Below, piece by piece: positions 4,481 through 24,115 of a stretch of DNA of 25,754 bases. The translations under genes were made by a program, and so were the position numbers. Source of the stretch: a virus (Duplodnaviria > Heunggongvirae > Uroviricota > Caudoviricetes); the IMG/VR virus record IMGVR_UViG_2778261588_000001; one strand, written 5' to 3'. The notes beneath the pieces were generated by a model, which had not been told where the DNA came from, made no database searches, and saw nothing but the letters and a program-made list of their open reading frames with translations. Each line of letters opens with the position of its first letter. Within the stretch, counting starts at the first letter, position 1.

Positions 4481-4876
4481 CTAACCTCGCATGTCAAAGC
4501 CAGATTTCTGAAAATCTCTGTAGACTTCCGGATTGTTGAAGGCCGGAAATTTGGCTTTATGAGCTGCGGACTTTATCGCTTCGCAATAGGCTTTATCACC
4601 GTTACTGGTAGATATTTTTAACGCCGTGCCATCCTGAGAGAATTCCATATGCAACCTGCATTTTTTCCCTTTCCAGTTATGCGGCTCATCAAGTTTGGCA
4701 TTAATTGCAGCTCTGATTCCCCGCGCTTGCGCCCCCCATTCATCCTGATCATCCCAGCGTCCTGAACTGCAACTACCTGTAGCAGTAGTTTTGTGGCAAT
4801 CTGAAGGGTGTAAAGGTGTGCATCCCGCAACAAAACCGACCCAAAAAGTCAACATAACGATTTTCTTTAATCCCAC
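4481..4876 (-). CDS. Lipoprotein with divergent TolA domain III-like C-terminal domain (131 aa)
   Basis: GTG start with SD GAGGAG at 6-nt spacing; signal peptide with lipobox VAGC; C-terminus ...KGKKCRLHMEFSQDGTALKISTSNGDKAYCEAIKSAAHKAKFPAFNNPEVYRDFQKSGFDMRG is paralogous to the adjacent 142-aa lipoprotein and resembles the TolA C-terminus. Confidence 0.7.
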   Translation of the reverse strand: MGLKKIVMLTFWVGFVAGCTPLHPSDCHKTTATGSCSSGRWDDQDEWGAQARGIRAAINAKLDEPHNWKGKKCRLHMEFSQDGTALKISTSNGDKAYCEAIKSAAHKAKFPAFNNPEVYRDFQKSGFDMRG

Positions 4877-5026
4877 TTCTTGCTCCTCAATCCATTAAAA
4901 TCTCAGCAATAGTAGTTGTTACGTCCGCCACTGGCTCAGAGCTGACTATCCGCTAAATTTAGCTCAGTGCCGTAGCTGTGTCAGAACAAACCTAAGCCGA
5001 AACCGTTTATTACAAAACAATAAATA

Positions 5027-5455
5027 TCAGGGTTTAAAATCCAGCACCCCATTTTGAAATACTTTATATACTTCCGGCGAAGGGGGGGCAGGTATATCAG
5101 CATTCTTTATCGCATTCATCGCTTCACGACATAAATCGAGGTCTCCACTTTCTCTTTTAACCTCCAGTAGAAGGCCATTCGGGGCCATATGCATTCTCAG
5201 TGTACACTCTTTTCCTGAATACTTACTCGCATCCCCGAACTGTTTTTCGATGGCGCTCTTGATTTGATGGGCATACAGACGGATATTCTCACTAACATCA
5301 GAAGTACGTTCAGATGAACTCACATACTGTGTCTCTATTGCTTTATCGGAGTAATATGATGTACGGTCATGATAATTTGTCGATACAGCATCAGTGCACC
5401 CGATAATAATCCCACTAATAATCAACGTAAGAATTGATGCGCTACGAAAACCCAT
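5027..5455 (-). CDS. Lipoprotein with TolA domain III-like C-terminal domain (142 aa)
   Basis: ATG with SD GAGGA; signal peptide with lipobox IIGC; C-terminal 85 residues YAHQIKSAIEKQFGDASKYSGKECTLRMHMAPNGLLLEVKRESGDLDLCREAMNAIKNADIPAPPSPEVYKVFQNGVLDFKP resemble the E. coli TolA C-terminus as recalled (...YAGQIKSAIESKFYDASSYAGKTCTLRIKLAPDGMLLDIKPEGGDPALCQAALAAAKLAKIPKPPSQAVYEVFKNAPLDFKP). Confidence 0.75.
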   Translation of the reverse strand: MGFRSASILTLIISGIIIGCTDAVSTNYHDRTSYYSDKAIETQYVSSSERTSDVSENIRLYAHQIKSAIEKQFGDASKYSGKECTLRMHMAPNGLLLEVKRESGDLDLCREAMNAIKNADIPAPPSPEVYKVFQNGVLDFKP

Positions 5456-6634: not shown

Positions 6635-6710
6635 TGGTGGCCCTTGCTGGATTTGAACCAGCGACCTGGCGATTATGAGTCGCTCGCTCTCACCACTGAG
6701 CTAAAGGGCC
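6635..6710 (-). tRNA. tRNA with CAU anticodon, ileX/ileZ-like (tRNA-Ile2; elongator Met not excluded)
   Basis: 76-nt cloverleaf: acceptor GGCCCTT/AAGGGCC, T-arm GCTGG-TTCAAAT-CCAGC, anticodon loop CU-CAU-AA, discriminator A, encoded CCA; differs at only a few positions from E. coli ileX as recalled. Confidence 0.85.
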
Positions 6711-9711: not shown

Positions 9712-10431
9712 AGCCTGCTTCTCCTTGCCTTTCGGCACGTAAGAGGCTAACCTAGATTTGCCGTTCATAGATTGAGCCTCAGATTAATGTTAAGCGTCTT
9801 GCAGGACGCGTAATGTTAACTGGGGCTTTTCTCTATCTGCCTTTGGTGTTCATGCCTGAGGCAGATAGCCTCAAGCACCCGCAGCAATTCTACTTAACTC
9901 CCGTCACCTCGCCAATATAAAATCAATCAGAAAGGCGATCCATAAGAACAACAGCAAGACAATAAATTGCCATTACAGCCGCAATAGCTAGCGCACATTT
10001 GAGAACCAGCACGACAACCTCCTGTATTGGACGTACACCAGTTCTGATAAATATGAGGCTGTCTCATCATTGATTCAATATAACTATTGGGTATAGTTTC
10101 TGTGATTTTGTTCTGTAGAAATGGAACACAACAACCAGTCACCACCAGCACTTCTTTAAATACGCCAAGTCCGACGCAAGCTAACCTTCTAGTCCGCTTT
10201 GAGCGAGGAGCGGACCAAACCCGGCCAACTGACTCTTAAAGGGGCCGCAGGAATTTTTCGTCTGAACTTTCGAAGCTCCTCTCCCTGAAGACAGAAAACT
10301 TCTGTGTGCTGTGGGAATATTGAATCTTTGCATTAGATATAAATAATTTTATCCCGCCTGAAGTTTACATTATTTTATTTATCTGTTTTTCTAAATCAGA
10401 CTGCACTCCTTACTTAAATCAGGAGCCAGTC

Positions 10432-11631
10432 ATGCCATTTGTTATTTATGTGTTTACTATCAGTGCCTTTGCGCTCGGACTCGCGGAATTTGTCCCCATT
10501 GGGCTGACAGACGTTATGGCTCAGGGGTTGTGTGTGGGTGTGGAGCAGACCGGGGCAGCGGTTACAACCTATGCACTGGGGGCAACGTTCGCGGCACCCG
10601 TACTGTCTGCGCTGACAGCAAGCTGGAGCCGGAAAAATGTAATGCTTACAACTGCCGTTGTGTTTACTGCCGGTAGTCTGGCGGCCGCGTTTGCAGCCAC
10701 ATTACCTCAGCTCCTGTTAGCGCGGTTCATTGCTGGTCTGGGACACGGCCTGTTTCTGGCTGCGGCATCCAGTACCGCAGCTCGTCTTGCTGGACCGGGT
10801 AAAGCAGGCAGAGCGGTGGCTGTGGTATTTGGTGGCTTTACTCTGGCGATGGCAATCGGCGTACCGCTGAGTACATGGTTGGGGGGGGTGGTCTCATGGC
10901 GTCCAGTTCTCGGCGCTATTGCCGCTTTTGGCGCGTTCGGATTCCTTGGACTGTTGTTCGGTATGAAAGATCCCGTACGCAGCGTGCCCGGTGAACATAG
11001 TGACTCAGCAATGCAGAATATCGGCATGCTGTTTAACCGTAAGTTGCTGGCCGGCGCGCTGGTTACGGTGCTGGCGTATGCAGGCTCGTTTACGGCTTAC
11101 ACCTTTATCGCACCTATTCTGACGCAGGTGACAGGGGTTACCGGAGCAACGGTGAGTCTGTTTATGCTGGTTTACGGTATTACAGCTGCGGTAGGTAATA
11201 TTCTTGGTGGGAAACTTACCGACAGCATGGGGGTTAATCGTGCCAATATACTCATCATTAGCGGCATTGTTGTTGTCGTGCTTGGTATGTGGCTGCTGTC
11301 ATCCTCACCGGTGAGCATGGGCATTCTGGTTGCGCTGCTGGGTATGGTGACATTTGCCGCAGTGCCGGCACTGCAGGCCCGTCTGATTGGTGTCGCTGAG
11401 CAACATGCTCCTCATGCGCATGGTGTTGCTGCCGGCCTGAATATTGCGGGCTTCAACTCAGGTATAGCGCTGGGATCAGTACTGGGCAGCATTACTATAA
11501 GCCACGCCGGTATCGTGTATACCGGTATCAGCGGTGCGATTGTTTCTCTGCTCGGCCTGCTGTTGCTGCTTGCACAAATCCGTCGCAGCCACAGTCGTAA
11601 ATTTCAACAGGTTAAAATCGTAGGCCAGTAA
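10432..11631 (+). CDS. MFS transporter (399 aa, 12-TM type), cargo
   Basis: Long hydrophobic ORF with Gly/Ala-rich helices; SD AGGAG upstream; visibly higher GC than flanking phage DNA. Confidence 0.85.
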   Translation: MPFVIYVFTISAFALGLAEFVPIGLTDVMAQGLCVGVEQTGAAVTTYALGATFAAPVLSALTASWSRKNVMLTTAVVFTAGSLAAAFAATLPQLLLARFIAGLGHGLFLAAASSTAARLAGPGKAGRAVAVVFGGFTLAMAIGVPLSTWLGGVVSWRPVLGAIAAFGAFGFLGLLFGMKDPVRSVPGEHSDSAMQNIGMLFNRKLLAGALVTVLAYAGSFTAYTFIAPILTQVTGVTGATVSLFMLVYGITAAVGNILGGKLTDSMGVNRANILIISGIVVVVLGMWLLSSSPVSMGILVALLGMVTFAAVPALQARLIGVAEQHAPHAHGVAAGLNIAGFNSGIALGSVLGSITISHAGIVYTGISGAIVSLLGLLLLLAQIRRSHSRKFQQVKIVGQ

Positions 11632-11642
11632 AGGGAGGTTAT

Positions 11643-12335
11643 ATGCTTACCCGTGAAAATATGCTTAATGGCACATTTGTCAGGGTGCATGAAGCGCTGC
11701 TCCCGGCGAATATGCTCTGGGACGCTGAAAAAATACGCGCATCAATGAACTCTACTCTGGAGGAGCGCCCGACGGGTGCTCCTTTCTGGATATTTGCCTA
11801 CGGGTCATTGATGTGGAATCCCGTGCTGGCAATTGAAGAAATGCAACGGGCCCGTCTGAAAGGATGGCAGCGCAGTTTCTGCATTCGTTTGATATCCGGA
11901 CGAGCGACTCCTGATGTCCCCGGCAGGATGTTATCGCTCGACGAAGGTGGAATTACCGAAGGTATTGCGTTCAGACTGCCGGAATCGACTCTTATTAATG
12001 AGCTGGAAATTGTCTGGACGCGCGAGATGATAACCGGTCTTTACCGTCCGGTCTGGGCAGACGTTTCGCTAGGAAACGGTGAGGAAATTCAGGCGCTGGC
12101 TTTCGTATCAGACAGACTGCATCCGCATTATGAACAGGACAATCTTACAGCGACCGTAGCGTTGAGCATCGCATCTGCCCGTGGAGACATTGGCACGAAT
12201 GCAGATTATGTATGGAAACTGCAGGCCACTCTGGGTGCGTTGGGAATACGGGATGATTACGTGAGTGAACTGGCCCTTGCTCTGCATGAGGCTCCCTGTA
12301 ACGATAAACTTCATCAGCGAGGCGCTTCACTATGA
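11643..12335 (+). CDS. ChaC-family gamma-glutamylcyclotransferase-like protein (230 aa)
   Basis: Motif FWIFAYGSLMWNP and downstream GRMLSLDEGG...LWTREMITG pattern typical of ChaC; SD AAGGGAGG upstream. Confidence 0.8.
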   Translation: MLTRENMLNGTFVRVHEALLPANMLWDAEKIRASMNSTLEERPTGAPFWIFAYGSLMWNPVLAIEEMQRARLKGWQRSFCIRLISGRATPDVPGRMLSLDEGGITEGIAFRLPESTLINELEIVWTREMITGLYRPVWADVSLGNGEEIQALAFVSDRLHPHYEQDNLTATVALSIASARGDIGTNADYVWKLQATLGALGIRDDYVSELALALHEAPCNDKLHQRGASL

Positions 12336-13213
12336 GCCATCTGAGCCATCTGCGAACGTTTCTTGAGGCCTATCGCTCTGGCTCCTTTTCAAAGGCGGCA
12401 GAACTACTGGGCATCACTCAGCCCGCGGCGTCACAGCATATCCAGTCTCTTGAGACTCTGGTTGGTAAGCGTCTGTTTATCAGGCAGGCCAGAGGCGTGA
12501 CGGCAACCGAAGCTGCGGATGAGCTTGCCCGCTCAGTTTCACCCTTCATTGATGGTCTGGAAGAAAAGCTGTCCTCTTTCCGGTCAGGCTCTGTACACGG
12601 GGGAACAATTAATCTGGCAGGACCGCCAGATTTTATTCATTCCCGGCTTGGGACAGTAATGGCTCCACTAATGAAGGAGGGGTATCGCCTACGCTTTCAT
12701 ACCGGCAATAAGCAACGTATTTATTCCCTTTTGCATGACGGGAGCGCCGATCTCGCTGTTACCGCATCTATGCCTGATGACCGTCTGTACGGCTATGCAC
12801 ATCTACTGACTGAACGCATGCTCCTTGTTCATGCTCCCGCCATGTCAGAGATCATCGGATCAGAACCTGGTGCTGAAACGCTTGCCTCATTACCGCTGAT
12901 TGCTTATGACGAAGAGTTGCCACTGATTAGAGCGCTCTGGGCCTCCATGTTTCAGAGAGCCCCTGAGATGCAGGCTACATTCACCATTCCGGATTTACGT
13001 ATTATCCGCGACTTGGTCTGTGACGGCCACGGGTGGACAGTGCTGCCGGATTATCACTGTGACAATGACCTGAAAAGTGGTCGCCTGATTTCAGTGACAC
13101 CTGCAGACCTCGCTCCGACTAATCATCTTTATCTGGTCTGGAACAAAAGGACGGCTAATAACAGCCGAACCGCCTATGTTCGGGATTACATTCTTAAAAC
13201 GTTTCCGCGTTGA
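12332..13213 (+). CDS. LysR-family transcriptional regulator (293 aa)
   Basis: N-terminal HTH LRTFLEAYRSGSFSKAAELLGITQPAASQHIQSLE; start overlaps the ChaC-like stop. Confidence 0.85.
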   Translation: MSHLSHLRTFLEAYRSGSFSKAAELLGITQPAASQHIQSLETLVGKRLFIRQARGVTATEAADELARSVSPFIDGLEEKLSSFRSGSVHGGTINLAGPPDFIHSRLGTVMAPLMKEGYRLRFHTGNKQRIYSLLHDGSADLAVTASMPDDRLYGYAHLLTERMLLVHAPAMSEIIGSEPGAETLASLPLIAYDEELPLIRALWASMFQRAPEMQATFTIPDLRIIRDLVCDGHGWTVLPDYHCDNDLKSGRLISVTPADLAPTNHLYLVWNKRTANNSRTAYVRDYILKTFPR

Positions 13214-13257
13214 TGTTTGAAACGGATGATTGGCGATGCGTATCATAAGTTACGTAT

Positions 13258-13281
13258 GTCCGCTTCTGGCACAAAGCAGAC
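13258..13281. repeat. Hairpin repeat copy A: GTCCGCTT-ctggcaca-AAGCAGAC
   Basis: Read directly; shares a 16-nt core (15/16 identical) with copy B at 16931..16954; lies between the convergent LysR and membrane-protein genes. Confidence 0.45.
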
Positions 13282-13343
13282 GCCCACTCTCACGCGAATG
13301 CTTTGCCCTTGACTTGCCAACAACCGTATCGCTTGCTCCGCAA

Positions 13344-14636
13344 CTATGGTTTTTTATTAGAACCTTCGCCACTAAATAAATTATAATAAATTGATTTTAT
13401 TAGATATCTGTCAGAATCTATATGGTCAGCACGAGTAGCATGCTCTAATGTTTCAAATGCTAGGGTTTGTGCGGCTTCAGCAAAAATTCCAGGCCAACCC
13501 TTACTCAGCATCGACAGTCCTTTAAGTACCCTTATCTGAATTTCCCTCATACTGGCACCATCGCGCGCAACAGGTGAGAAAAAGTCTTCAAGTAGATCGT
13601 TATTCTGAAGTGGTGCAACATGTACAGAAGGATATTTCACTTCTATTTCATCAGATTTATTCTGCGCGTAAGCGGAAAGTATACGTACACCTCTGCCAAT
13701 GACATCAATGGCGGTTCCAGGATCGTTCACTGCGGGGGAAAGGGCTCGGCAGGCTATTTCGGCCATGACGCTAAGACAAAATCGGGGGTCCTGAGCAAAT
13801 GAACGTACATCCGAGACAATAATCGTCTCAAGTAAATCGGTGCTGATTGATGACTCCTGGCCCTGACTCAGGTACAAAACTGGCGTGGACGGATGTATGA
13901 AACTGCCCGGCTGCGCCACGAGGTATACATGACGGGGATCATTGGTCAGCAGCTTGCTGAGTTTCACCATATCAACATATTCAACATAGCCAATCTTTTT
14001 CGGATAAACTGCAACCGTTCCTTTCGGCTGTTCATTGTTCTCAAGCCAAGGATATCCGCCGAGACAGGGATTTCTTGCTCTCGCAATAAATGTTTCGATG
14101 GCCGCCTGTTCTACTTTTGCCGTTGTCTCACCAACCCTCCCCAGAGAGGTCAAATGCTGTATCCAGCGAAGCAATGTGATGAGGATTAAGGCAATGACAA
14201 CCAGTGTTACAATGAATAAAATGACTCTCCCCCTTTCTCCATAAGCTCCCATATTGAGGGCAATAATCCCTACCAGACTGAAGAGAAAAGAACCGATGAA
14301 GGTGGCCAGTACATTTTGTGTGGTGACGTCTTCAACAACTAAACGAGTAGCTCTGGGAGTCACATTAGTAGTGGCTGAACCGTAGGCTGTGACCATGATG
14401 CTCAGCGAAAATGTGGTCACTGCCAGCATACTCGATGCCAGTATGTTCAGAATGTTATCGACTGCTTCCGCACCAACCTTCACGGAAACCGACTCAGGTA
14501 TCATTGATTTAAAAAGAATTGATAAAAGGGCCGTTATTATTGCGACAATTGCGAATAACGTTGCCCTGAACCATAGTTTTTTAAATGTCTGCTTCAGCAT
14601 CCATTTCCAGCGTGAAATCATTCTGCATTCCCTCAT
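13344..14636 (-). CDS. Predicted membrane protein (430 aa), DUF2254-like
   Basis: N-terminal transmembrane segments followed by a soluble C-terminal domain; family assignment from memory and uncertain. Confidence 0.65.
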   Translation of the reverse strand: MRECRMISRWKWMLKQTFKKLWFRATLFAIVAIITALLSILFKSMIPESVSVKVGAEAVDNILNILASSMLAVTTFSLSIMVTAYGSATTNVTPRATRLVVEDVTTQNVLATFIGSFLFSLVGIIALNMGAYGERGRVILFIVTLVVIALILITLLRWIQHLTSLGRVGETTAKVEQAAIETFIARARNPCLGGYPWLENNEQPKGTVAVYPKKIGYVEYVDMVKLSKLLTNDPRHVYLVAQPGSFIHPSTPVLYLSQGQESSISTDLLETIIVSDVRSFAQDPRFCLSVMAEIACRALSPAVNDPGTAIDVIGRGVRILSAYAQNKSDEIEVKYPSVHVAPLQNNDLLEDFFSPVARDGASMREIQIRVLKGLSMLSKGWPGIFAEAAQTLAFETLEHATRADHIDSDRYLIKSIYYNLFSGEGSNKKP

Positions 14637-14684
14637 ATTGCAGCCGGGATAAATAAATGCCGCCTCTGTGGCGGCATGTTGCTG

Positions 14685-16688
14685 TTAACGAACCAGATGC
14701 AGGAAGTGCAGGTGTTTTTCGTACTGGTCCAGTATGTCATTAATCAGCTGTTCCTGATTCCAGCCCATTACATCATAATTTTGGCCGCCCTCTTTGAGAT
14801 AGACTTCAGCGCGATAATATCGATGTTGTTCACTCTGCTGCTCATCATTATCCAGCGCAGCGAGCGCGAAGGTCGGTGAGTTATACCCGCGAAGCCTCAC
14901 TTCATATATATAATTCAGCTCGTTGCCCAAATCGACTTCAAGGCGAATACGATCCTCGGCGGCGTCACTGATGTGGCTTATCGTTCCCTGCTTGTTAAGT
15001 TCCTCCTGAACCAGCGTCATGGCGGGTTGGATAATGTCGTCCATAAAACGTTTCACAAGAGAGCGCTTCGGCAAATACGCGATATTGCGTAACCTTCTCT
15101 GCCAGGGAATTGGGTTACGTGCAGCCGTAGGAGCAATAGTCGCCATGCTAAGGCTTTCACGCTTGGTCAAATCCCGACGCAGGGCTTTTAACAGTCCGTA
15201 TATGGATATTAATAAGATAACTGAGAAGGGCAATGCACTCGCTATCGTTACGGTTTGCAACGCACTCAGCCCCCCTGCGATCAGCAGGGCAATAGCAACA
15301 ACGCCCATGAGCGATGCCCAGAAAATTCGCTGCCAGACGGGCGTGTTTGCCACCCCACCTGATGCCAGAGTATCCACAACCATTGCCCCCGAATCAGCAG
15401 ACGTTACAAAGAAGACGATGACCATCGCCATTGCAATGAATGACAGCACGGAAGAGAACGGGAAATGCTCCAGGAAATTAAACAGGGCAAGCGCAACATC
15501 CTGCTGAACGGTATTGGCGAGGTCAGTGGCGCCCTGGTTCATGATGAGATAGATGGCGCTGTTTCCAAACACCGTCATCCACATGAGCGTAAAGCCGGCG
15601 GGAACAAACAACACGCCAGTCACGAACTCACGAATTGTCCTGCCGCGGGAAACGCGTGCAATGAACATACCTACAAACGGCGACCATGAAAGCCACCATC
15701 CCCAGTATAATAATGTCCAGCCCCCCAGCCAGTTGCTCGACTTGGGTTCATACGCGTAAAGGTTGAACGTTTTACTCACCAGTTCCGACAGATAACCACC
15801 CGTATTTTCCACAAATGACTTCAGCAGAAGCACAGTGGGACCCAGGCACAAGACCAGCGCCAGGAGCAACACCGCCAGGCCCAGATTAAGCTCAGACAGG
15901 ATGCGTATTCCCTTGTCCAGGCCGGACACCACCGAAATCGTCGCTAACCCCGTGATGACCACGATCAAAATGACCTGTACCGTTTCATTGATGGGCACGC
16001 CGAAAAGATGGTTCAAACCGGCATTCACCTGCAATACACCGTAACCCAGTGATGTTGCAACGCCAAAGACAGTGCCTATCACGGCGAAGATATCAACCGC
16101 GTGGCCTATAGGCCCGTAAATGCGATCGCCGATAATGGGATAGAGCGCAGAACGCAGCGTTAAAGGCAGACCGTGACGGTAACTGAAAAAGGCCAGAATC
16201 AGCGCCACGATGGCATAAATTGCCCATGCGTGCAGACCCCAGTGGAAGAACGTCAGGCGCATGGCTTCCTTCGCTGCCGCAACGGTCTCTGGAGTGCCGA
16301 CAGGTGGCGAAAGATAATGCATCACAGGTTCGGCAACGCCAAAGAACATCAGGCCGATCCCCATCCCTGCCGAAAAAAGCATCGCGAACCAGGAGTGGTA
16401 GCTGAAATCAGGCTGCGCATGGTCTGGGCCCAGCTTTATATCACCGTAACGTGAGAGTCCAAGGAACGTGACGCTCAGTAAAATCAGGGCCACAGCAAGT
16501 ATGTAGAACCAGCTGGCATTCGTGAAGATTTGTTGCTGAAGTAGTTTAAAATTTTTGTCGGCGACATCCGGGAATACGGCGGCAAAGGCGACAAGAAGGA
16601 AAATTAGCAAAGCAGATGTAAAGAATACCGCTTTGTTAATCTGGCTTGTAGACTTCTTTGGGGTTGTATCATTTTCACTCATAATCAT
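14685..16688 (-). CDS. BCCT-family transporter, BetT-like (667 aa)
   Basis: Length and N-terminal pattern (...GDIKLGPDHAQPDFSYHSWFAMLFSAGMGIGLMFFGVAEPVMHY) parallel E. coli BetT as recalled; long C-terminal cytoplasmic tail. Confidence 0.85.
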   Translation of the reverse strand: MIMSENDTTPKKSTSQINKAVFFTSALLIFLLVAFAAVFPDVADKNFKLLQQQIFTNASWFYILAVALILLSVTFLGLSRYGDIKLGPDHAQPDFSYHSWFAMLFSAGMGIGLMFFGVAEPVMHYLSPPVGTPETVAAAKEAMRLTFFHWGLHAWAIYAIVALILAFFSYRHGLPLTLRSALYPIIGDRIYGPIGHAVDIFAVIGTVFGVATSLGYGVLQVNAGLNHLFGVPINETVQVILIVVITGLATISVVSGLDKGIRILSELNLGLAVLLLALVLCLGPTVLLLKSFVENTGGYLSELVSKTFNLYAYEPKSSNWLGGWTLLYWGWWLSWSPFVGMFIARVSRGRTIREFVTGVLFVPAGFTLMWMTVFGNSAIYLIMNQGATDLANTVQQDVALALFNFLEHFPFSSVLSFIAMAMVIVFFVTSADSGAMVVDTLASGGVANTPVWQRIFWASLMGVVAIALLIAGGLSALQTVTIASALPFSVILLISIYGLLKALRRDLTKRESLSMATIAPTAARNPIPWQRRLRNIAYLPKRSLVKRFMDDIIQPAMTLVQEELNKQGTISHISDAAEDRIRLEVDLGNELNYIYEVRLRGYNSPTFALAALDNDEQQSEQHRYYRAEVYLKEGGQNYDVMGWNQEQLINDILDQYEKHLHFLHLVR

Positions 16689-16930
16689 TTATTCCATTAA
16701 TTAAATCCGCACTGGATAGAAGGTACTACCTCTCACAGAGTAGCAAAGTTCAACTGGCTATGCGGGGTTAATCGGAATGCATGGTGGAATGAGTGCCGAT
16801 ACAAATCATCCTATATTCTAAGGAGTTTTAAGTTACTCAGCCTGCCAATTACTGGGGCATTTAATTTGTATGATCTGTATCAAAGCTGGGATATAAGTTA
16901 AGTGAAGTATATTAGGCACGAATTACCAGC

Positions 16931-16954
16931 GTCTGCTCTTGGCACAAAGCGGAC
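16931..16954. repeat. Hairpin repeat copy B: GTCTGCTC-ttggcaca-AAGCGGAC
   Basis: Read directly; matches copy A; lies between the BetT-like gene start and the upstream phage gene. Confidence 0.45.
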
Positions 16955-17022
16955 AACCACGCTAGCTCTACCCTGTGCCACAAAATGTCAATTTGCATCT
17001 GAACTAATGCACTTTAATCTCG

Positions 17023-17485: not shown

Positions 17486-18562
17486 TTACCCCCTGAAGCC
17501 CGGCGGAATTTCGTTATCCGGTTCAGAAATATGATTCACACAACGCTGGTTGTTCGTGCCGCTTACCGGGAGCAACCAGGGGTTCTCAAAATTCCGGTCC
17601 GGTCCAAAAAACGTCGTCGCTCGCTGAACAAATTCCGTTCCCGTTTTCCCGGTAGCCGCCAAGTATCTTGCGTAACGCCTCACGCCATCCAGCATGGCCT
17701 CTGGTGGCACCCCCTCGCGTAATCTGGCCTTCCAGGCACTGAAAGCGGATTTCTTCGGGTTTGCCCCAGCACGCAACGGGTACTCCCGCCAGACCTGTTC
17801 GAACACATCCGGATAATCCACTCGTCCCACAGACTGCCCGGTGTTTTCCGGGACTACCCGATCGGCTTCCCGCTGAATGGCGGAATCGGCTTCAGGCTGC
17901 TGCAGTTGGTGTGATTGCTCCGCCCTTGCGGTCATCACCTGCTGCACAGCGCCCGAATCGGCTTTCAGCGCATACGCTGAATCGGCTTCCGGTGTCGTGC
18001 CTGCTGGCTGACCAAGATTGACGGTCTGAACATCCCCTGCCTGGTTCGTGGCGTTTTTTACGCCATGGACCATAGTGTTTTGATCTTCTTGATCTGTATC
18101 TTTATCTGTATCTTTATCTGTCGTGACTCGTCGTGACATGTGCGTGACATTTCGTGACGCGCCGTGACAATCGCCATTTTGTTCCCGCTTTCTTTCCCTC
18201 TCTCGCTGCGCCCTCTTGCGCTCTGCAGGAGATTTTGCGGTTTGCGAAATATTGCCGTTGTCCTCTTTAAGCACCTGGCGTTTTTCCCATCCAGTGATTA
18301 AATCACCATCAAGTACCCGCCCCTGCATCGTCTGCAAAATTGAATCAATTACCTCTTCTGTCACGTCGAGCGCACTTGCCAAATCTTCTGTCGTGACATC
18401 AATGTGACCTCGCGTGACATTTCGTGACGCGCTCACCAGGAGGTGGATATACACTGCCATCACTGTTGCAATTGGCTGCCCTGACACCCTGGCAATTGTT
18501 CGCCACTTAGGGTCATTTGGCATGTCATGCCATAATCTGAGCCAGGCGTTAGCCATACTCAC
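17486..18562 (-). CDS. Phage replication initiation protein, O-like / YdaU-like (358 aa), with internal repeats
   Basis: Position after the cro/YdaT-like genes; N-terminus MSMANAWLRLWHDMPNDPKWRTIARVSGQPIATVMAVY resembles prophage replication proteins; acidic TDKDTDKDTD repeat; contains iteron arrays. Confidence 0.65.
   Translation of the reverse strand: MSMANAWLRLWHDMPNDPKWRTIARVSGQPIATVMAVYIHLLVSASRNVTRGHIDVTTEDLASALDVTEEVIDSILQTMQGRVLDGDLITGWEKRQVLKEDNGNISQTAKSPAERKRAQRERERKREQNGDCHGASRNVTHMSRRVTTDKDTDKDTDQEDQNTMVHGVKNATNQAGDVQTVNLGQPAGTTPEADSAYALKADSGAVQQVMTARAEQSHQLQQPEADSAIQREADRVVPENTGQSVGRVDYPDVFEQVWREYPLRAGANPKKSAFSAWKARLREGVPPEAMLDGVRRYARYLAATGKTGTEFVQRATTFFGPDRNFENPWLLPVSGTNNQRCVNHISEPDNEIPPGFRG
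18121..18168. repeat. Iteron array 1: five TCGTGAC-type repeats at 10-11 bp spacing inside the O-like gene, next to 12-nt tandem ATCTGTATCTTT repeats
   Basis: CGTGAC starts at 18122, 18132, 18143, 18153 and 18163, read directly from the sequence. Confidence 0.55.
18391..18428. repeat. Iteron array 2: four (C/T)GTGAC repeats at 10-11 bp spacing inside the O-like gene
   Basis: Motif starts at 18392, 18403, 18413 and 18423; the 20-mer GCGTGACATTTCGTGACGCG is shared with array 1; an inverted copy GTCACG lies at 18360..18365. Confidence 0.5.
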
Positions 18563-18627: not shown

Positions 18628-19053
18628 TCAATGCACAGCCACAATATTTCCTGCAGGGCCACCACGATTCATCTGGTTGAAACCAGCGATCGCCACTGCG
18701 ACAAAATCATCAGCGTCTCTCACCAGTCGTTCCCGCGTCTCCACTAGTTCCCGAAAATAGGCTGAGCTATGGCTGCGCATTCGGGCCACCAGCAGAGGTG
18801 GCATTGCTTTTTCGATAGCTGGTAACAACGCCTGAATTTTTTCAACTGCATCAGGGGTGTCTTTCTCTACCCAGCGGAAAATTTTCTGGGTATTGCGAGC
18901 CAGGGCTTCCGGATGGCTGTCGTCATACAGTTCTGGGAACGTCATACCCAGTTCAAAATAAGCCCTGGTTATTTCAGCTGCCGGAACTTTTTCACCGTCC
19001 GGATGCGCCCAGGCATTCATCGCCATGCGGATGTGTTCATGCTTGATTTTCAT
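18628..19053 (-). CDS. YdaT-like (CII-position) prophage regulatory protein (141 aa)
   Basis: Position directly downstream of the cro-like gene; N-terminus MKIKHEHI and general similarity to Rac YdaT as recalled; uncertain. Confidence 0.55.
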   Translation of the reverse strand: MKIKHEHIRMAMNAWAHPDGEKVPAAEITRAYFELGMTFPELYDDSHPEALARNTQKIFRWVEKDTPDAVEKIQALLPAIEKAMPPLLVARMRSHSSAYFRELVETRERLVRDADDFVAVAIAGFNQMNRGGPAGNIVAVH

Positions 19054-21643: not shown

Positions 21644-24115
21644 ATGAGTAAAGTCTTTATTTGCGCCGCTATTCCTGACGAACTGGCAACAAGGGAAGAA
21701 GGCGCTGTGGCTGTAGCCACAGCCATTGAAGCTGGCGACGAACGCCGTGCTCGAGCAAAATTTCACTGGCAATTCCTGGAACATTATCCGGCTGCTCAGG
21801 ACTGCGCTTATAAATTTATTGTCTGCGAGGATAAACCTGGCATACCCCGCCCAGCCCTCGATTCATGGGATGCTGAATATATGCAGGAAAACCGCTGGGA
21901 TGAGGATTCTGCTTCTTTTGTTCCGGTTGAGACTGAATCCGATCCGATGAACGTCACTTTTGACAAGCTGGCCCCTGAAGTACAGAACGCTGTCATGGTT
22001 AAGTTCGACACATGTGAAAACATCACCGTTGATATGATTATTAGCGCGCAGGAATTGTTGCAGGAAGACATGGCAACATTCGACGGACATATCGTTGAAG
22101 CGTTGATGAAAATGCCAGAAGTTAACGCCATGTATCCGGAGCTTAAGTTGCACGCCATTGGGTGGGTTAAGCATAAATGTATTCCTAGTGCTAAATGGCC
22201 CGAAATTCAGGCAGAGATGCGCATCTGGAAAAAACGTCGCGAAGGTGAACGCAAGGAAACCGGAAAATACACGTCTGTTGTTGATCTCGCCCGCGCCAGA
22301 ACCAATCAACAGTACACTGAAAATTCAACAGGAAAAATCTGCCCGGTCATTGCTGCCATTCATCGCGAATACAAGCAGACATGGAAAACACTGGATGACG
22401 AACTGGCCTACGCTCTCTGGCCTGGTGATGTGGGTGCCGGAAACATTGACGGCAGCATCCATCGCTGGGCAAAAAAAGAAGTTATCGACAACGACCGCGA
22501 AGACTGGAAGCGTATCTCGGCATCAATGCGCAAACAGCCTGATGCCCTTCGCTACGACCGCCAAACTATTTTTGGCCTTGTCCGTGAGCGTCCGATCGAC
22601 ATTCACAAAGATCCCGTAGCACTGAACAAATATATCTGCGAATACCTGACGACAAAGGGCGCGTTTGAGAATGAAGAAACAGACCTGGGCACTGTTGATG
22701 TTCTCCAGTCATCAGAAACACAAACTGATGCAGTGGAAACTGAGGTATCTGATATCCCAAAAAATGAAACCGCGCCGGAAGCTGAACCATCTGTAGAGCG
22801 TGAGGGGCCGTTCTATTTCCTCTTCGCAGATAAGGACGGAGAAAAATACGGTCGCGCAAACAAACTTTCTGGTCTGGATAAGGCACTGGCTGCTGGCGCC
22901 ACTGAAATCACAAAAGAAGAATATTTTGCCCGAAAAAATGGCACATACACGGGCTTACCGCAAAATGTAGATACCGCTGAAGATTCAGAACAACCAGAGC
23001 CGATAAAAGTTACCGCTGACGAAGTAAACAAAATTATGCAGGCAGCCAATATCAGCCAGCCTGACGCCGATAAGTTGCTTGCTGCATCACGTGGTGAATT
23101 TGTTGAAGGGATTAGTGACCCGAATGATCCGAAATGGGTTAAGGGGATCCAGACCCGCGATTCTGTGAACCAGAACCAGCATGAATCGGAACGGAACTAC
23201 CAAAAAGCGGAACAAAACAGTCCAAATGCGTTACAAAACGAGCCAGAAACGAAACAGCCTGAACCAGTGGCGCAACAGGAAGTGGAAAAAGCCTGCACCG
23301 CTTGCGGTCAGACCGGCGGCGGCAACTGCCCTGATTGTGGCGCGGTGATGGGCGACGCAACATACCAAGAAACATTCGATGAAGAGTATCAGGTTGAAGT
23401 TCAGGAAGATGATCCGGAGGAAATGGAAGGCGCTGAACATCCACACAAGGAGAACACTGGCGGCAATCAGCATCACAATAGCGATAATGAAACTGGCGAG
23501 ACGGCAGATCACCCAATTAAGGTGAACGGTCATCACGAAATCACATCCACCAGCAGGACGTGTGACCATCTAATGATCGACCTTGAAACCATGGGAAAAA
23601 ATCCTGATGCCCCGATCATCTCAATAGGTGCAATATTTTTCGATCCGCAAACCGGAGATATGGGACCGGAATTTAGTAAGACTATCGATCTGGAAACTGC
23701 TGGCGGAGTCATTGATCGGGACACCATTAAATGGTGGCTTAAGCAATCACGCGAAGCGCAATCTGCCATTATGACCGATGAAATCCCGTTAGATGATGCA
23801 CTGTTACAATTGCGGGAATTTATCGACGAAAACTCCGGTGAATTTTTTGTTCATGTCTGGGGAAATGGAGCCAACTTCGACAACACGATTTTGCGCCGTT
23901 CATACGAACGGCAGGGGATCCCCTGCCCGTGGCGTTACTACAACGATCGCGATGTACGCACAATCGTTGAGCTGGGGAAAGCCATAGACTTCGATGCCAG
24001 AACGGCTATTCCATTCGAAGGTGAGCGCCATAATGCACTTGATGACGCCCGTTACCAGGCAAAATACGTTTCAGTTATCTGGCAAAAACTGATCCCGAGT
24101 CAGGCTGATTCTTAA
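21644..24115 (+). CDS. Large early protein (823 aa) with C-terminal DEDDh 3'-5' exonuclease domain and central zinc ribbon
   Basis: C-terminal motifs MIDLETMG (Exo I), WGNGANFD (Exo II) and HNALDDARYQ (Exo III); CTACGQTGGGNCPDCG zinc ribbon; N-terminus resembles prophage proteins often annotated exodeoxyribonuclease VIII. Confidence 0.8.
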   Translation: MSKVFICAAIPDELATREEGAVAVATAIEAGDERRARAKFHWQFLEHYPAAQDCAYKFIVCEDKPGIPRPALDSWDAEYMQENRWDEDSASFVPVETESDPMNVTFDKLAPEVQNAVMVKFDTCENITVDMIISAQELLQEDMATFDGHIVEALMKMPEVNAMYPELKLHAIGWVKHKCIPSAKWPEIQAEMRIWKKRREGERKETGKYTSVVDLARARTNQQYTENSTGKICPVIAAIHREYKQTWKTLDDELAYALWPGDVGAGNIDGSIHRWAKKEVIDNDREDWKRISASMRKQPDALRYDRQTIFGLVRERPIDIHKDPVALNKYICEYLTTKGAFENEETDLGTVDVLQSSETQTDAVETEVSDIPKNETAPEAEPSVEREGPFYFLFADKDGEKYGRANKLSGLDKALAAGATEITKEEYFARKNGTYTGLPQNVDTAEDSEQPEPIKVTADEVNKIMQAANISQPDADKLLAASRGEFVEGISDPNDPKWVKGIQTRDSVNQNQHESERNYQKAEQNSPNALQNEPETKQPEPVAQQEVEKACTACGQTGGGNCPDCGAVMGDATYQETFDEEYQVEVQEDDPEEMEGAEHPHKENTGGNQHHNSDNETGETADHPIKVNGHHEITSTSRTCDHLMIDLETMGKNPDAPIISIGAIFFDPQTGDMGPEFSKTIDLETAGGVIDRDTIKWWLKQSREAQSAIMTDEIPLDDALLQLREFIDENSGEFFVHVWGNGANFDNTILRRSYERQGIPCPWRYYNDRDVRTIVELGKAIDFDARTAIPFEGERHNALDDARYQAKYVSVIWQKLIPSQADS

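Follow-up and report, generated by a model that had tools for sequence, protein, structure and literature searches.

Paired 24-bp palindromes at a cargo hotspot of an Escherichia coli prophage: candidate recombination sites for cassette exchange with P2-like phages and plasmids

Temperate phages and their satellites keep a large stock of accessory genes, anti-phage defence included, in variable hotspots, and it is natural to ask by what route this cargo is exchanged. The stretch of DNA analysed here (hereafter the window, 25,754 nucleotides long, IMG/VR record IMGVR_UViG_2778261588_000001) raises the question in a concrete form. This 25.7-kb segment is a Qin-like lambdoid prophage of Escherichia coli adjoining rspB/ynfA, and the 4 kb of it that were tested are 100% identical to many complete E. 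coli genomes. Its cargo hotspot, located between the replication genes and hok/sok, is punctuated by three co-oriented palindromes of 24 base pairs (bp), all of the form GTCCGCT-N10-AGCGGAC. We name them the A-type site and the B-type sites B1 and B2. What are they for? An earlier note on this DNA had proposed recombination footprints of module insertion, a small palindromic repeat family, or shared terminators. We hold it probable, at roughly 0.6, that these hairpins are double-stranded recombination sites for cassette exchange rather than RNA elements, and that they are served in trans by a candidate recombinase of about 200 amino acids (aa).

All three hairpins stand exactly where the earlier note had placed them (Table 1). 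Its count of 15 shared nucleotides (nt) out of 16 for B1 and B2 has to be corrected, since TGGCACAAAGC[A/G]GAC is identical at 14 of 15 positions (14 of 16 with the base before it included); over their full length, B1 and B2 agree at 20 of 24 positions. These B sites do bracket exactly the DUF2254 and BCCT genes, according to Pfam and to the RefSeq annotation of an identical E. coli locus. The third hairpin, which had been termed weaker, does mark where the cargo begins on the left, ahead of the MFS gene; rather than being simply weak, it represents a second class, which has the arms of the first and a conserved core of its own. The claim that such a recurrence is unlikely by chance finds marginal support in a pattern scan that tolerates mismatches (4 hits for 1.4 expected) and clear support in an unbiased shuffle test: the window has three 7-N10-7 palindromes with the common arm GTCCGCT, and none of 200 dinucleotide shuffles reaches three.

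What carries the argument is the place where homology stops. Other E. coli prophages have different DNA between the same hokD and DUF977 flanks, and their identity with the window breaks inside the palindromes, so that the sites are chimeric. Compared with more than 30 other prophages, the window is homologous on the hokD side up to position 10206, where the A core ends, or up to 10214-10216; on the right flank homology begins at 16931/16932; and that of the DUF2254-BCCT unit begins at 13256-13259 where the upstream cargo differs. In A sites, positions 1-9 follow the left flank and positions 16-24 the cargo, the switch falling between 9 and 16. In B sites that share one flank and differ in the other, variation at positions 1, 4, 8 and 9 tracks the left context, and that at positions 17 and 21 the right context. 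The left arm of a B site, together with positions 8-9, goes with the cargo on its left, and the core and right arm go with the right neighbour, A sites being the mirror image. These polymorphisms, few in number and spread over some 24 bp, suggest a crossover within the central 6-7 nt, each arm staying with its own flank.

The second line of evidence is that the same cassette is found in a lambdoid prophage, in a P2-like prophage and on plasmids, with hybrid sites. In phage P2 itself (NC_070905), as retrieved by a short BLAST match, the Z/fun cargo between the tail-fibre-assembly gene G and the sheath gene FI is bracketed by an A site, GTCTGCTTTGAGCGAGGAGCGGAC, and a B site, GTCTGCTCTTGGCACAGAGCGGAC, in the same relative orientation, each differing at 1 of 24 positions from A and B2 of the window. 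No further such sites occur in P2, its second hotspot included, and none in P4. The P2-like prophage of E. coli S10 (L248) is organized as FI - A - (WP_000161640 cassette) - B - DUF2254-BCCT - B - G, with a two-gene unit 99.5% identical to window positions 13256-16978. Another locus with a P2 context (L105) has the first cassette only: it differs from L248 by exactly one B-bounded DUF2254-BCCT segment, which is the product expected from a circle integrating at a B site. In L042 and L248 the left arm of B2 is joined to a P2-specific right half (TGGCACAGAGCGGACtgtcag). The unit is also present, again at over 99% identity, on 1,533 plasmids, mostly from Klebsiella, where homology spans exactly B1 to B2 (window 13256-16955). 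The two-gene module thus does recur elsewhere with the same flanks, in strain S10 as well as in the IncY plasmid pPO125. Moreover, four cargo clusters are common to Qin-type and P2-type flanks, with exactly chimeric sites: on one side the arm variant is that of the flank, on the other that of the cargo. Homology with prophages, with the P2-like prophage and with plasmids ending inside the palindromes, the idea of recombination footprints is borne out.

Is this arrangement peculiar to a handful of elements? A survey of 120 viral loci from IMG/VR (1.2 Mb), searched with the TGGCACA-type site only, yielded 253 sites of the family for about 4 expected, so that the proposal of a small palindromic repeat family holds as well. 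The GAGCGA class is represented by 79 sites, though the search had used only TGGCACA. Neighbouring sites are co-oriented in 112 of 115 pairs. Consecutive pairs are of the AB type 74 times (with 465-5832 bp of cargo), BA 29 times, BB 10 times and AA once, and 23 of the 29 BA intervals are mere linkers of at most 27 nt, the mode being 18 nt. The sites are laid out as 7-2-6-2-7, with arms and core more than 90% conserved and positions 8-9 and 16-17 about 45% conserved; inverted arms around an asymmetric centre of 6-8 bp are the layout of core-type sites of tyrosine recombinases. By far the commonest arm variants are C to T at position 4 and its mirror image, G to A at position 21. Both affect one and the same cytosine, read on one strand of the palindrome or the other, and this hints at a hotspot of mutation. 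Some 60 distinct cargos reside at the sites, many of them devoted to defence (CBASS, Tmn, a retron reverse transcriptase, PD-T7-1, HEC-08, parts of Lamassu, others). Neither in the viral loci nor in an IMG/VR search was a fused A/B site or an empty hotspot with a single site found, as would be expected if the two cores were incompatible; this absence of hybrids, the sole ground for the idea, suggests that A and B cores do not recombine with each other.

Could the palindromes act in RNA instead? As terminators, insulators or stabilisers of 3' ends they might be carried along with morons, and would be found at module edges only incidentally. They can form stems of 7-9 bp, hairpins of the same kind sit just after stop codons in Alphaproteobacteria, B2 is located 3' of the DUF977 gene, and the B site of P2 is 3' of gene G. 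However, none of the three sites has a T tract (their tails read gcccactc, aaccacgc and caaacccg), none was flagged by a terminator scan of both strands, and their folding z-scores range from -1.6 to +0.7. Rfam has no match at the sites, at the gathering threshold or at E<=1, in the window and 10 related loci. The loops are conserved as much as the stems, each site is chimeric between its two neighbours, and a proper terminator-like hairpin sits elsewhere, at 14657-14677. Finally, cargo genes run in either direction relative to the sites (22 on the plus side, 38 on the minus side), so that these are not gene-polar RNA signals. The lack of a T tract and the weak z-scores lead us to reject the shared terminators of the earlier note, and we see a role at the transcript level, of whatever kind, as highly improbable.

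The ends of the cargo are 7-bp inverted repeats (AGCGGAC...GTCCGCT), and this recalls yet another form of mobility, that of non-autonomous transposon-like cassettes in the style of miniature inverted-repeat transposable elements, of IS200/IS605 or of the tyrosine transposases associated with repetitive extragenic palindromes (REPs), known as RAYTs: a transposase would move terminal inverted repeats into the loop of a target hairpin. Elements with hairpin ends moved in trans are established knowledge (IS200/IS605, REP/RAYT). The empty target that this reading predicts, the left half of A fused to the right half of B, is nevertheless not in IMG/VR, where 25 matches to the fused site all come without arms, hence as chance matches. 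Target-site duplications are missing, the cargo does not carry whole hairpins with it, and no recurrent HUH or DDE transposase or RAYT lies near the sites, whether among 767 open reading frames (ORFs) clustered from the 120 loci or among 90 cargo ORFs compared with Pfam and PADLOC. Transposition of this kind can hardly be credited.

How, then, would recombination at the sites proceed? Each site consists of arms of 7-9 bp (GTCCGCTyy / rrAGCGGAC) around an asymmetric core of 6-7 bp, GAGCGA in class A and TGGCACA in class B. Cassettes occupy A-to-B or B-to-B intervals, the complementary B-to-A interval being filled by backbone, by the 18-nt linker or by the recombinase gene, and exchange would result from crossovers inside the cores. 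Segments of the A-to-B type would be swapped by paired A x A and B x B crossovers, a natural counterpart of recombinase-mediated cassette exchange, and the two-site arrangement would explain why cargo is swapped, not lost. The DUF2254-BCCT pair, a B-to-B unit, would have been acquired at a B site already present, a circle with one B site being the simplest vehicle, and its entry would have left the hybrid sites B1 and B2. Taken together, the sequence comparisons point to conservative site-specific recombination, presumably catalysed in trans by tyrosine recombinases of about 200 aa that comprise the catalytic domain only.

Integrase matches among the cargo ORFs, and then plasmid pPO125, led to the candidate enzyme. 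The array of this IncY plasmid encodes a 200-aa protein of the Phage_integrase family that displays the R..HxxR..H..Y motifs and lacks an N-terminal arm-binding domain. Representatives of the 200-aa recombinase are WP_001752951 and WP_001305361. At least 8,000 homologues, 77-92% identical, are spread across Gammaproteobacteria; close relatives occur in 864 of 5,426 E. coli genomes, Nissle 1917 included, and in 67 IMG/VR loci, as well as in Phytobacter, Proteus, Idiomarina and Cycloclasticus. All enteric contexts inspected show, ahead of the gene, a variable GTCCGCT-like arm, two nucleotides, TCGCTC (the A core), ATAAGGGACAACC and, further on, the ATG; behind it come a stem-loop, GGGCTGC-N4-GCAGCCC, then TGTGCCA (the B core), two nucleotides and a variable AGCGGAC-like arm. 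With an A core upstream and a B core downstream, the gene occupies a B-to-A interval. There are at least 13 distinct downstream and 9 distinct upstream contexts, homology between them stops at the two cores, and the neighbours are varying defence genes. In a clade of recombinases that are 60-64% identical, the core next to the gene is CCGGCCA, and other palindromes of the same loci have GGCC-type cores. This evidence is circumstantial and coherent, and it makes the family a plausible candidate for the cognate enzyme of the sites. N-terminal fragments of the same type of recombinase occur in Bradyrhizobium.

A dedicated enzyme might not be needed at all. REP-like palindromes could serve as portable microhomology, a short shared stretch exploited by RecET, Red or Erf, by template switching at hairpins or by cleavage of the gyrase type. 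The sites are the sole sequence common to different cargos and backbones; lambdoid prophages encode relaxed recombinases, as is well established; Alpha- and Betaproteobacteria have the same palindrome between genes in many copies; and about 84% of complete E. coli genomes have no gene for the candidate recombinase. Yet crossovers are confined to the central core though both 7-nt arms are equally conserved, and A and B, which share both arms, show neither A x B deletion products nor single-site hotspots. The sites are strictly co-oriented, their cores are asymmetric, and the recombinase gene is embedded between two core types. Weighing both sides, we find exchange by microhomology rather unlikely.

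The preference for site-specific recombination has to face several facts, the rarity of the candidate gene among them. If positions 8-9 and 16-17, which vary, set its limits, recombination over short homologies could pass for a central crossover. Support for recombination is comparative throughout, with no observed product, circle or excision junction. The junction that should have preceded insertion, cassette 1 (LysR) joined directly to the DUF977 flank, is absent from the 5,426 E. coli genomes. Double changes in the arms are mostly the T4/A21 variant, and complementarity is slightly higher between the arms that flank the linker than within a hairpin, an ambiguous result on which nothing here is built. 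The window has no copy of the recombinase, which could simply be another shuffled passenger of B-to-A intervals; in Cycloclasticus, the cores on either side of its copies are only degenerate ones, and no canonical site lies within 8 kb. Lastly, palindromes of alphaproteobacterial metagenome-assembled genomes (MAGs) follow ordinary housekeeping genes as high-copy REP-like repeats, without a cassette signature.

This last point bears on a worry of the earlier note, that the motif might be a ubiquitous repeat unrelated to module boundaries. It is not so in Enterobacteria, and it is so in some alphaproteobacterial MAGs, where the palindrome is an intergenic repeat in high copy number. In E. coli, sites were seen only in hotspots of prophages, plasmids or islands: strain K-12 has 2 of them in 26 kb of Qin and 0 in Rac. 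A scan of species-representative genomes retrieved B-type sites in Serratia, Pantoea, Providencia, Klebsiella, Kosakonia and others, and many in Hyphomicrobiales and Xanthobacteraceae and in MAGs of Nitrosomonadaceae; the GTCY head, left open in the query, was present in 98 of 138 matches, and a second hairpin with the same arms followed 62 of them. Alphaproteobacterial loci harbour co-oriented clusters of palindromes with other cores (GGGGGTA, TGACCCA).

A few loci met on the way merit a description of their own. In Qin of K-12 (L246), the cassette that contains flxA measures 967 bp; it runs from a B-like site, which falls within the annotated ydfV ORF, to an A-like site with core GAGCAA (17982-18005 / 18973-18996), and it recurs in several IMG/VR contigs. 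E. coli Nissle 1917 has a chromosomal island with an array of A and B sites (L277, 7436-17447); one of its cassettes is a 5.7-kb operon for a TonB-dependent receptor and ABC iron uptake, and another comprises the small recombinase beside a HEC-08 defence gene. In alphaproteobacterial contigs (L170, L161, L232, L238) hairpins come as co-oriented triplets with identical arms, loops TGGCACA, GGGGGTA and TGACCCA, and a period of 45-47 nt, often after the stop codon of ABC_sub_bind-like genes ending in ...ADEVIE, with up to 17 hairpins in 8 kb. In L080 (2775-6702), within a B-to-A interval beside an ars operon, a umuDC operon is split by the genes of two larger tyrosine recombinases (335 and 707 aa), an arrangement suggestive of an unrelated insertion of the Tn554 kind.

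Table 1. Palindromes, flanking extension and cassettes of the window.
Feature	Coordinates	Strand	Description
A-type site	10192..10215	+	GTCCGCTTTGAGCGAGGAGCGGAC; arms GTCCGCT / AGCGGAC, core GAGCGA; left boundary of all hotspot cargo
B-type site B1	13258..13281	+	GTCCGCTTCTGGCACAAAGCAGAC; core TGGCACA; left arm GTCCGCTTC with cassette 1, right arm AAGCAGAC with cassette 2
B-type site B2	16931..16954	+	GTCTGCTCTTGGCACAAAGCGGAC; core TGGCACA; left arm GTCTGCTCT with cassette 2, right arm AAGCGGAC with prophage backbone
Backbone-side extension of B2	16955..17022	+	Conserved; reaches the stop codon of the DUF977 gene
Degenerate B-like palindrome	4923..4946	+	GTCCGCCACTGGCTCAGAGCTGAC; between TolA-C-terminal-domain morons 4481-4876 and 5027-5455
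Cassette 1 (A-to-B)	10216..13257	+	MFS transporter 10432-11631, ChaC-like gamma-glutamylcyclotransferase 11643-12335, LysR regulator 12332-13213 (Pfam, RefSeq)
Cassette 2 (B-to-B)	13282..16930	-	DUF2254 membrane protein 13344-14636, BCCT (BetT-like) transporter 14685-16688 (Pfam)

On the minus strand the prophage reads cro-like regulator, ydaT, replication gene, DUF977, cargo, hokD/sok, DUF968, RusA, Q, tRNAs, lysis genes and terminase. Cassette 2 is not tied to cassette 1, the same DUF2254-BCCT unit being preceded by other A-to-B cargo in four loci (L028, L062, L106, L248). A T/A arm variant marks both ends of this unit, and the other cassettes follow no general rule in this respect. The terminator-like hairpin found between its two genes by the terminator scan is bidirectional (ATGCCGCC-N5-GGCGGCAT then TTATTTAT); despite this intervening structure, the two genes look like a single operon. 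Beyond B2, the extension listed in Table 1 shows about 78% similarity to the P2 sequence that separates the B site from gene G. Some 16 nt past B2 it includes the B core in inverted form (CCCTGTGCCA, 16971-16980), with a match in a P2 locus (L005, about 2543-2552; CTCTGTG(C/T)CA in P2-like phages). This copy could pair with the core, and a conserved GAGCTAATAC-like box is found further on. A fourth palindrome of the window, degenerate and B-like, shares its site and flank with the viral locus L076; it is perhaps what remains of a site at a second hotspot, one located between Q/tRNAs and the lysis genes. Two further features deserve a word. The tRNA at 6635-6710 is called tRNA-Met (CAT) by ARAGORN, and the identical gene is tRNA-Ile in RefSeq; its CAT anticodon is probably modified with lysidine. 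The ORF at 21644-24115 (823 aa, with a 3'-5' exoribonuclease domain) is intact, and it is annotated as a pseudogene with a frameshift in the prophage of strain AR_452, which is otherwise near-identical.

Several other identities were tried and set aside. As regards the palindromes, TGGCAC does correspond to the -24 element of a sigma-54 promoter, but inspection finds no -12 TTGC at the right spacing. They are not attC sites of integrons, since the arms GTCCGCT / AGCGGAC lack the GTTRRRY / RYYYAAC core and have no GTT/AAC triplet; nor does the window have an IntI with attI, its sole integrase being that of the prophage (24459 onwards). E. coli REPs and bacterial interspersed mosaic elements (BIMEs) do not fit either, the sites being confined to hotspots of mobile elements with no RAYT-like gene near them. 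As regards the candidate recombinase, it is only distantly Xer-like (53.6 bits against a cut-off of 220) and cannot be classed as a Xer protein or an integron integrase. In size, and in lacking an arm-binding domain, it resembles FimB/FimE-type invertases, yet it is not a member of that family (25.5 bits against the cut-off of 222 of NCBIfam NF007371).

What would follow if site-specific recombination is at work? For at least one P2 and one lambdoid hotspot, the sites offer an exact and testable answer to the question of how cargo is exchanged. Nature would have a second cassette-capture system alongside integrons, cassette boundaries would become predictable in genomes, and engineers could gain compact heterospecific recombination sites. 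With less than even confidence, we go one step further and suggest a previously unrecognised cassette system, integron-like but distinct: a stand-alone tyrosine recombinase of about 200 aa and two heterospecific 24-bp sites (GAGCGA, TGGCACA and clade-specific variants), the gene lying between B and A, would shuttle defence, transport and accessory cassettes among P2-like phages, lambdoid prophages, plasmids and genomic islands, related sites having spread as REP-like repeats in Alpha- and Betaproteobacteria.

How does this compare with what is known? For P2 the core observation is not new: a review citing Nilsson, Karlsson & Haggard-Ljungquist (2004, Mol Biol Evol 21:1) mentions inverted repeats flanking the Z/fun locus of P2-like coliphages. 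Two papers on P2 hotspots, of 2022 and 2026 (PMC13586616), leave these repeats unmentioned, and the latter, a survey of thousands of P2-like phages, regards the mechanism of exchange with other mobile elements as unresolved. Literature searches with strings of the site sequences returned unrelated primers only. The P2 repeats and the window sites are the same sequences, and cargo appears to be exchanged at them between P2-like phages and other elements. The present description extends to a lambdoid prophage and to plasmids, defines two core classes in a strict A-cargo-B order, and proposes a candidate recombinase. The two-class arrangement, its wider reach beyond P2 and the recombinase candidate may be new.

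Integrons are reminiscent of this arrangement in many respects: promoter-poor cassette arrays, short structured sites, an adjoining gene for a tyrosine recombinase, gain of one cassette at a time and defence cargo. By contrast, the sites described here span 24 bp, not 57-141 bp, fall into two alternating classes and have no GTTRRRY core; the candidate enzyme, with its 200 or so residues, lacks the IntI-specific insertion, breakpoints occur on both sides of a B-linker-A pair, and nothing points to a single-stranded substrate. The pdif modules of Acinetobacter plasmids are likewise bounded by short core sites, those of XerC/XerD, with inverted arms and a 6-bp centre, and they populate many replicons; the present sites, unrelated to dif, are co-oriented and of two core classes, and the candidate enzyme is not XerC/D. 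In the cassette exchange engineered with heterospecific lox or FRT sites, too, arms are shared, spacers are incompatible and the swappable segment is kept. Here the system would be a natural one with a candidate enzyme, the incompatibility of A and B being deduced from the absence of hybrids.

Finally, REP/BIME elements and their RAYTs share with our sites short palindromes, co-oriented clusters, alternating loop types, a high copy number in some genomes and a position 3' of genes. The present sites have neither GTAG head nor RAYT, and their sequence is near-identical across bacterial classes, whereas REPs are species-specific. In T4-type phages, short repeated stem-loops termed PeSLs, described as 'mobile regulatory cassettes', flank novel ORFs in hyperplastic regions, and a role in shuffling was proposed for them (PMC2839356). 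They combine an early promoter with a terminator and act through homologous recombination; the sites described here, by contrast, have no such signatures, and their crossovers appear to be restricted to the cores.

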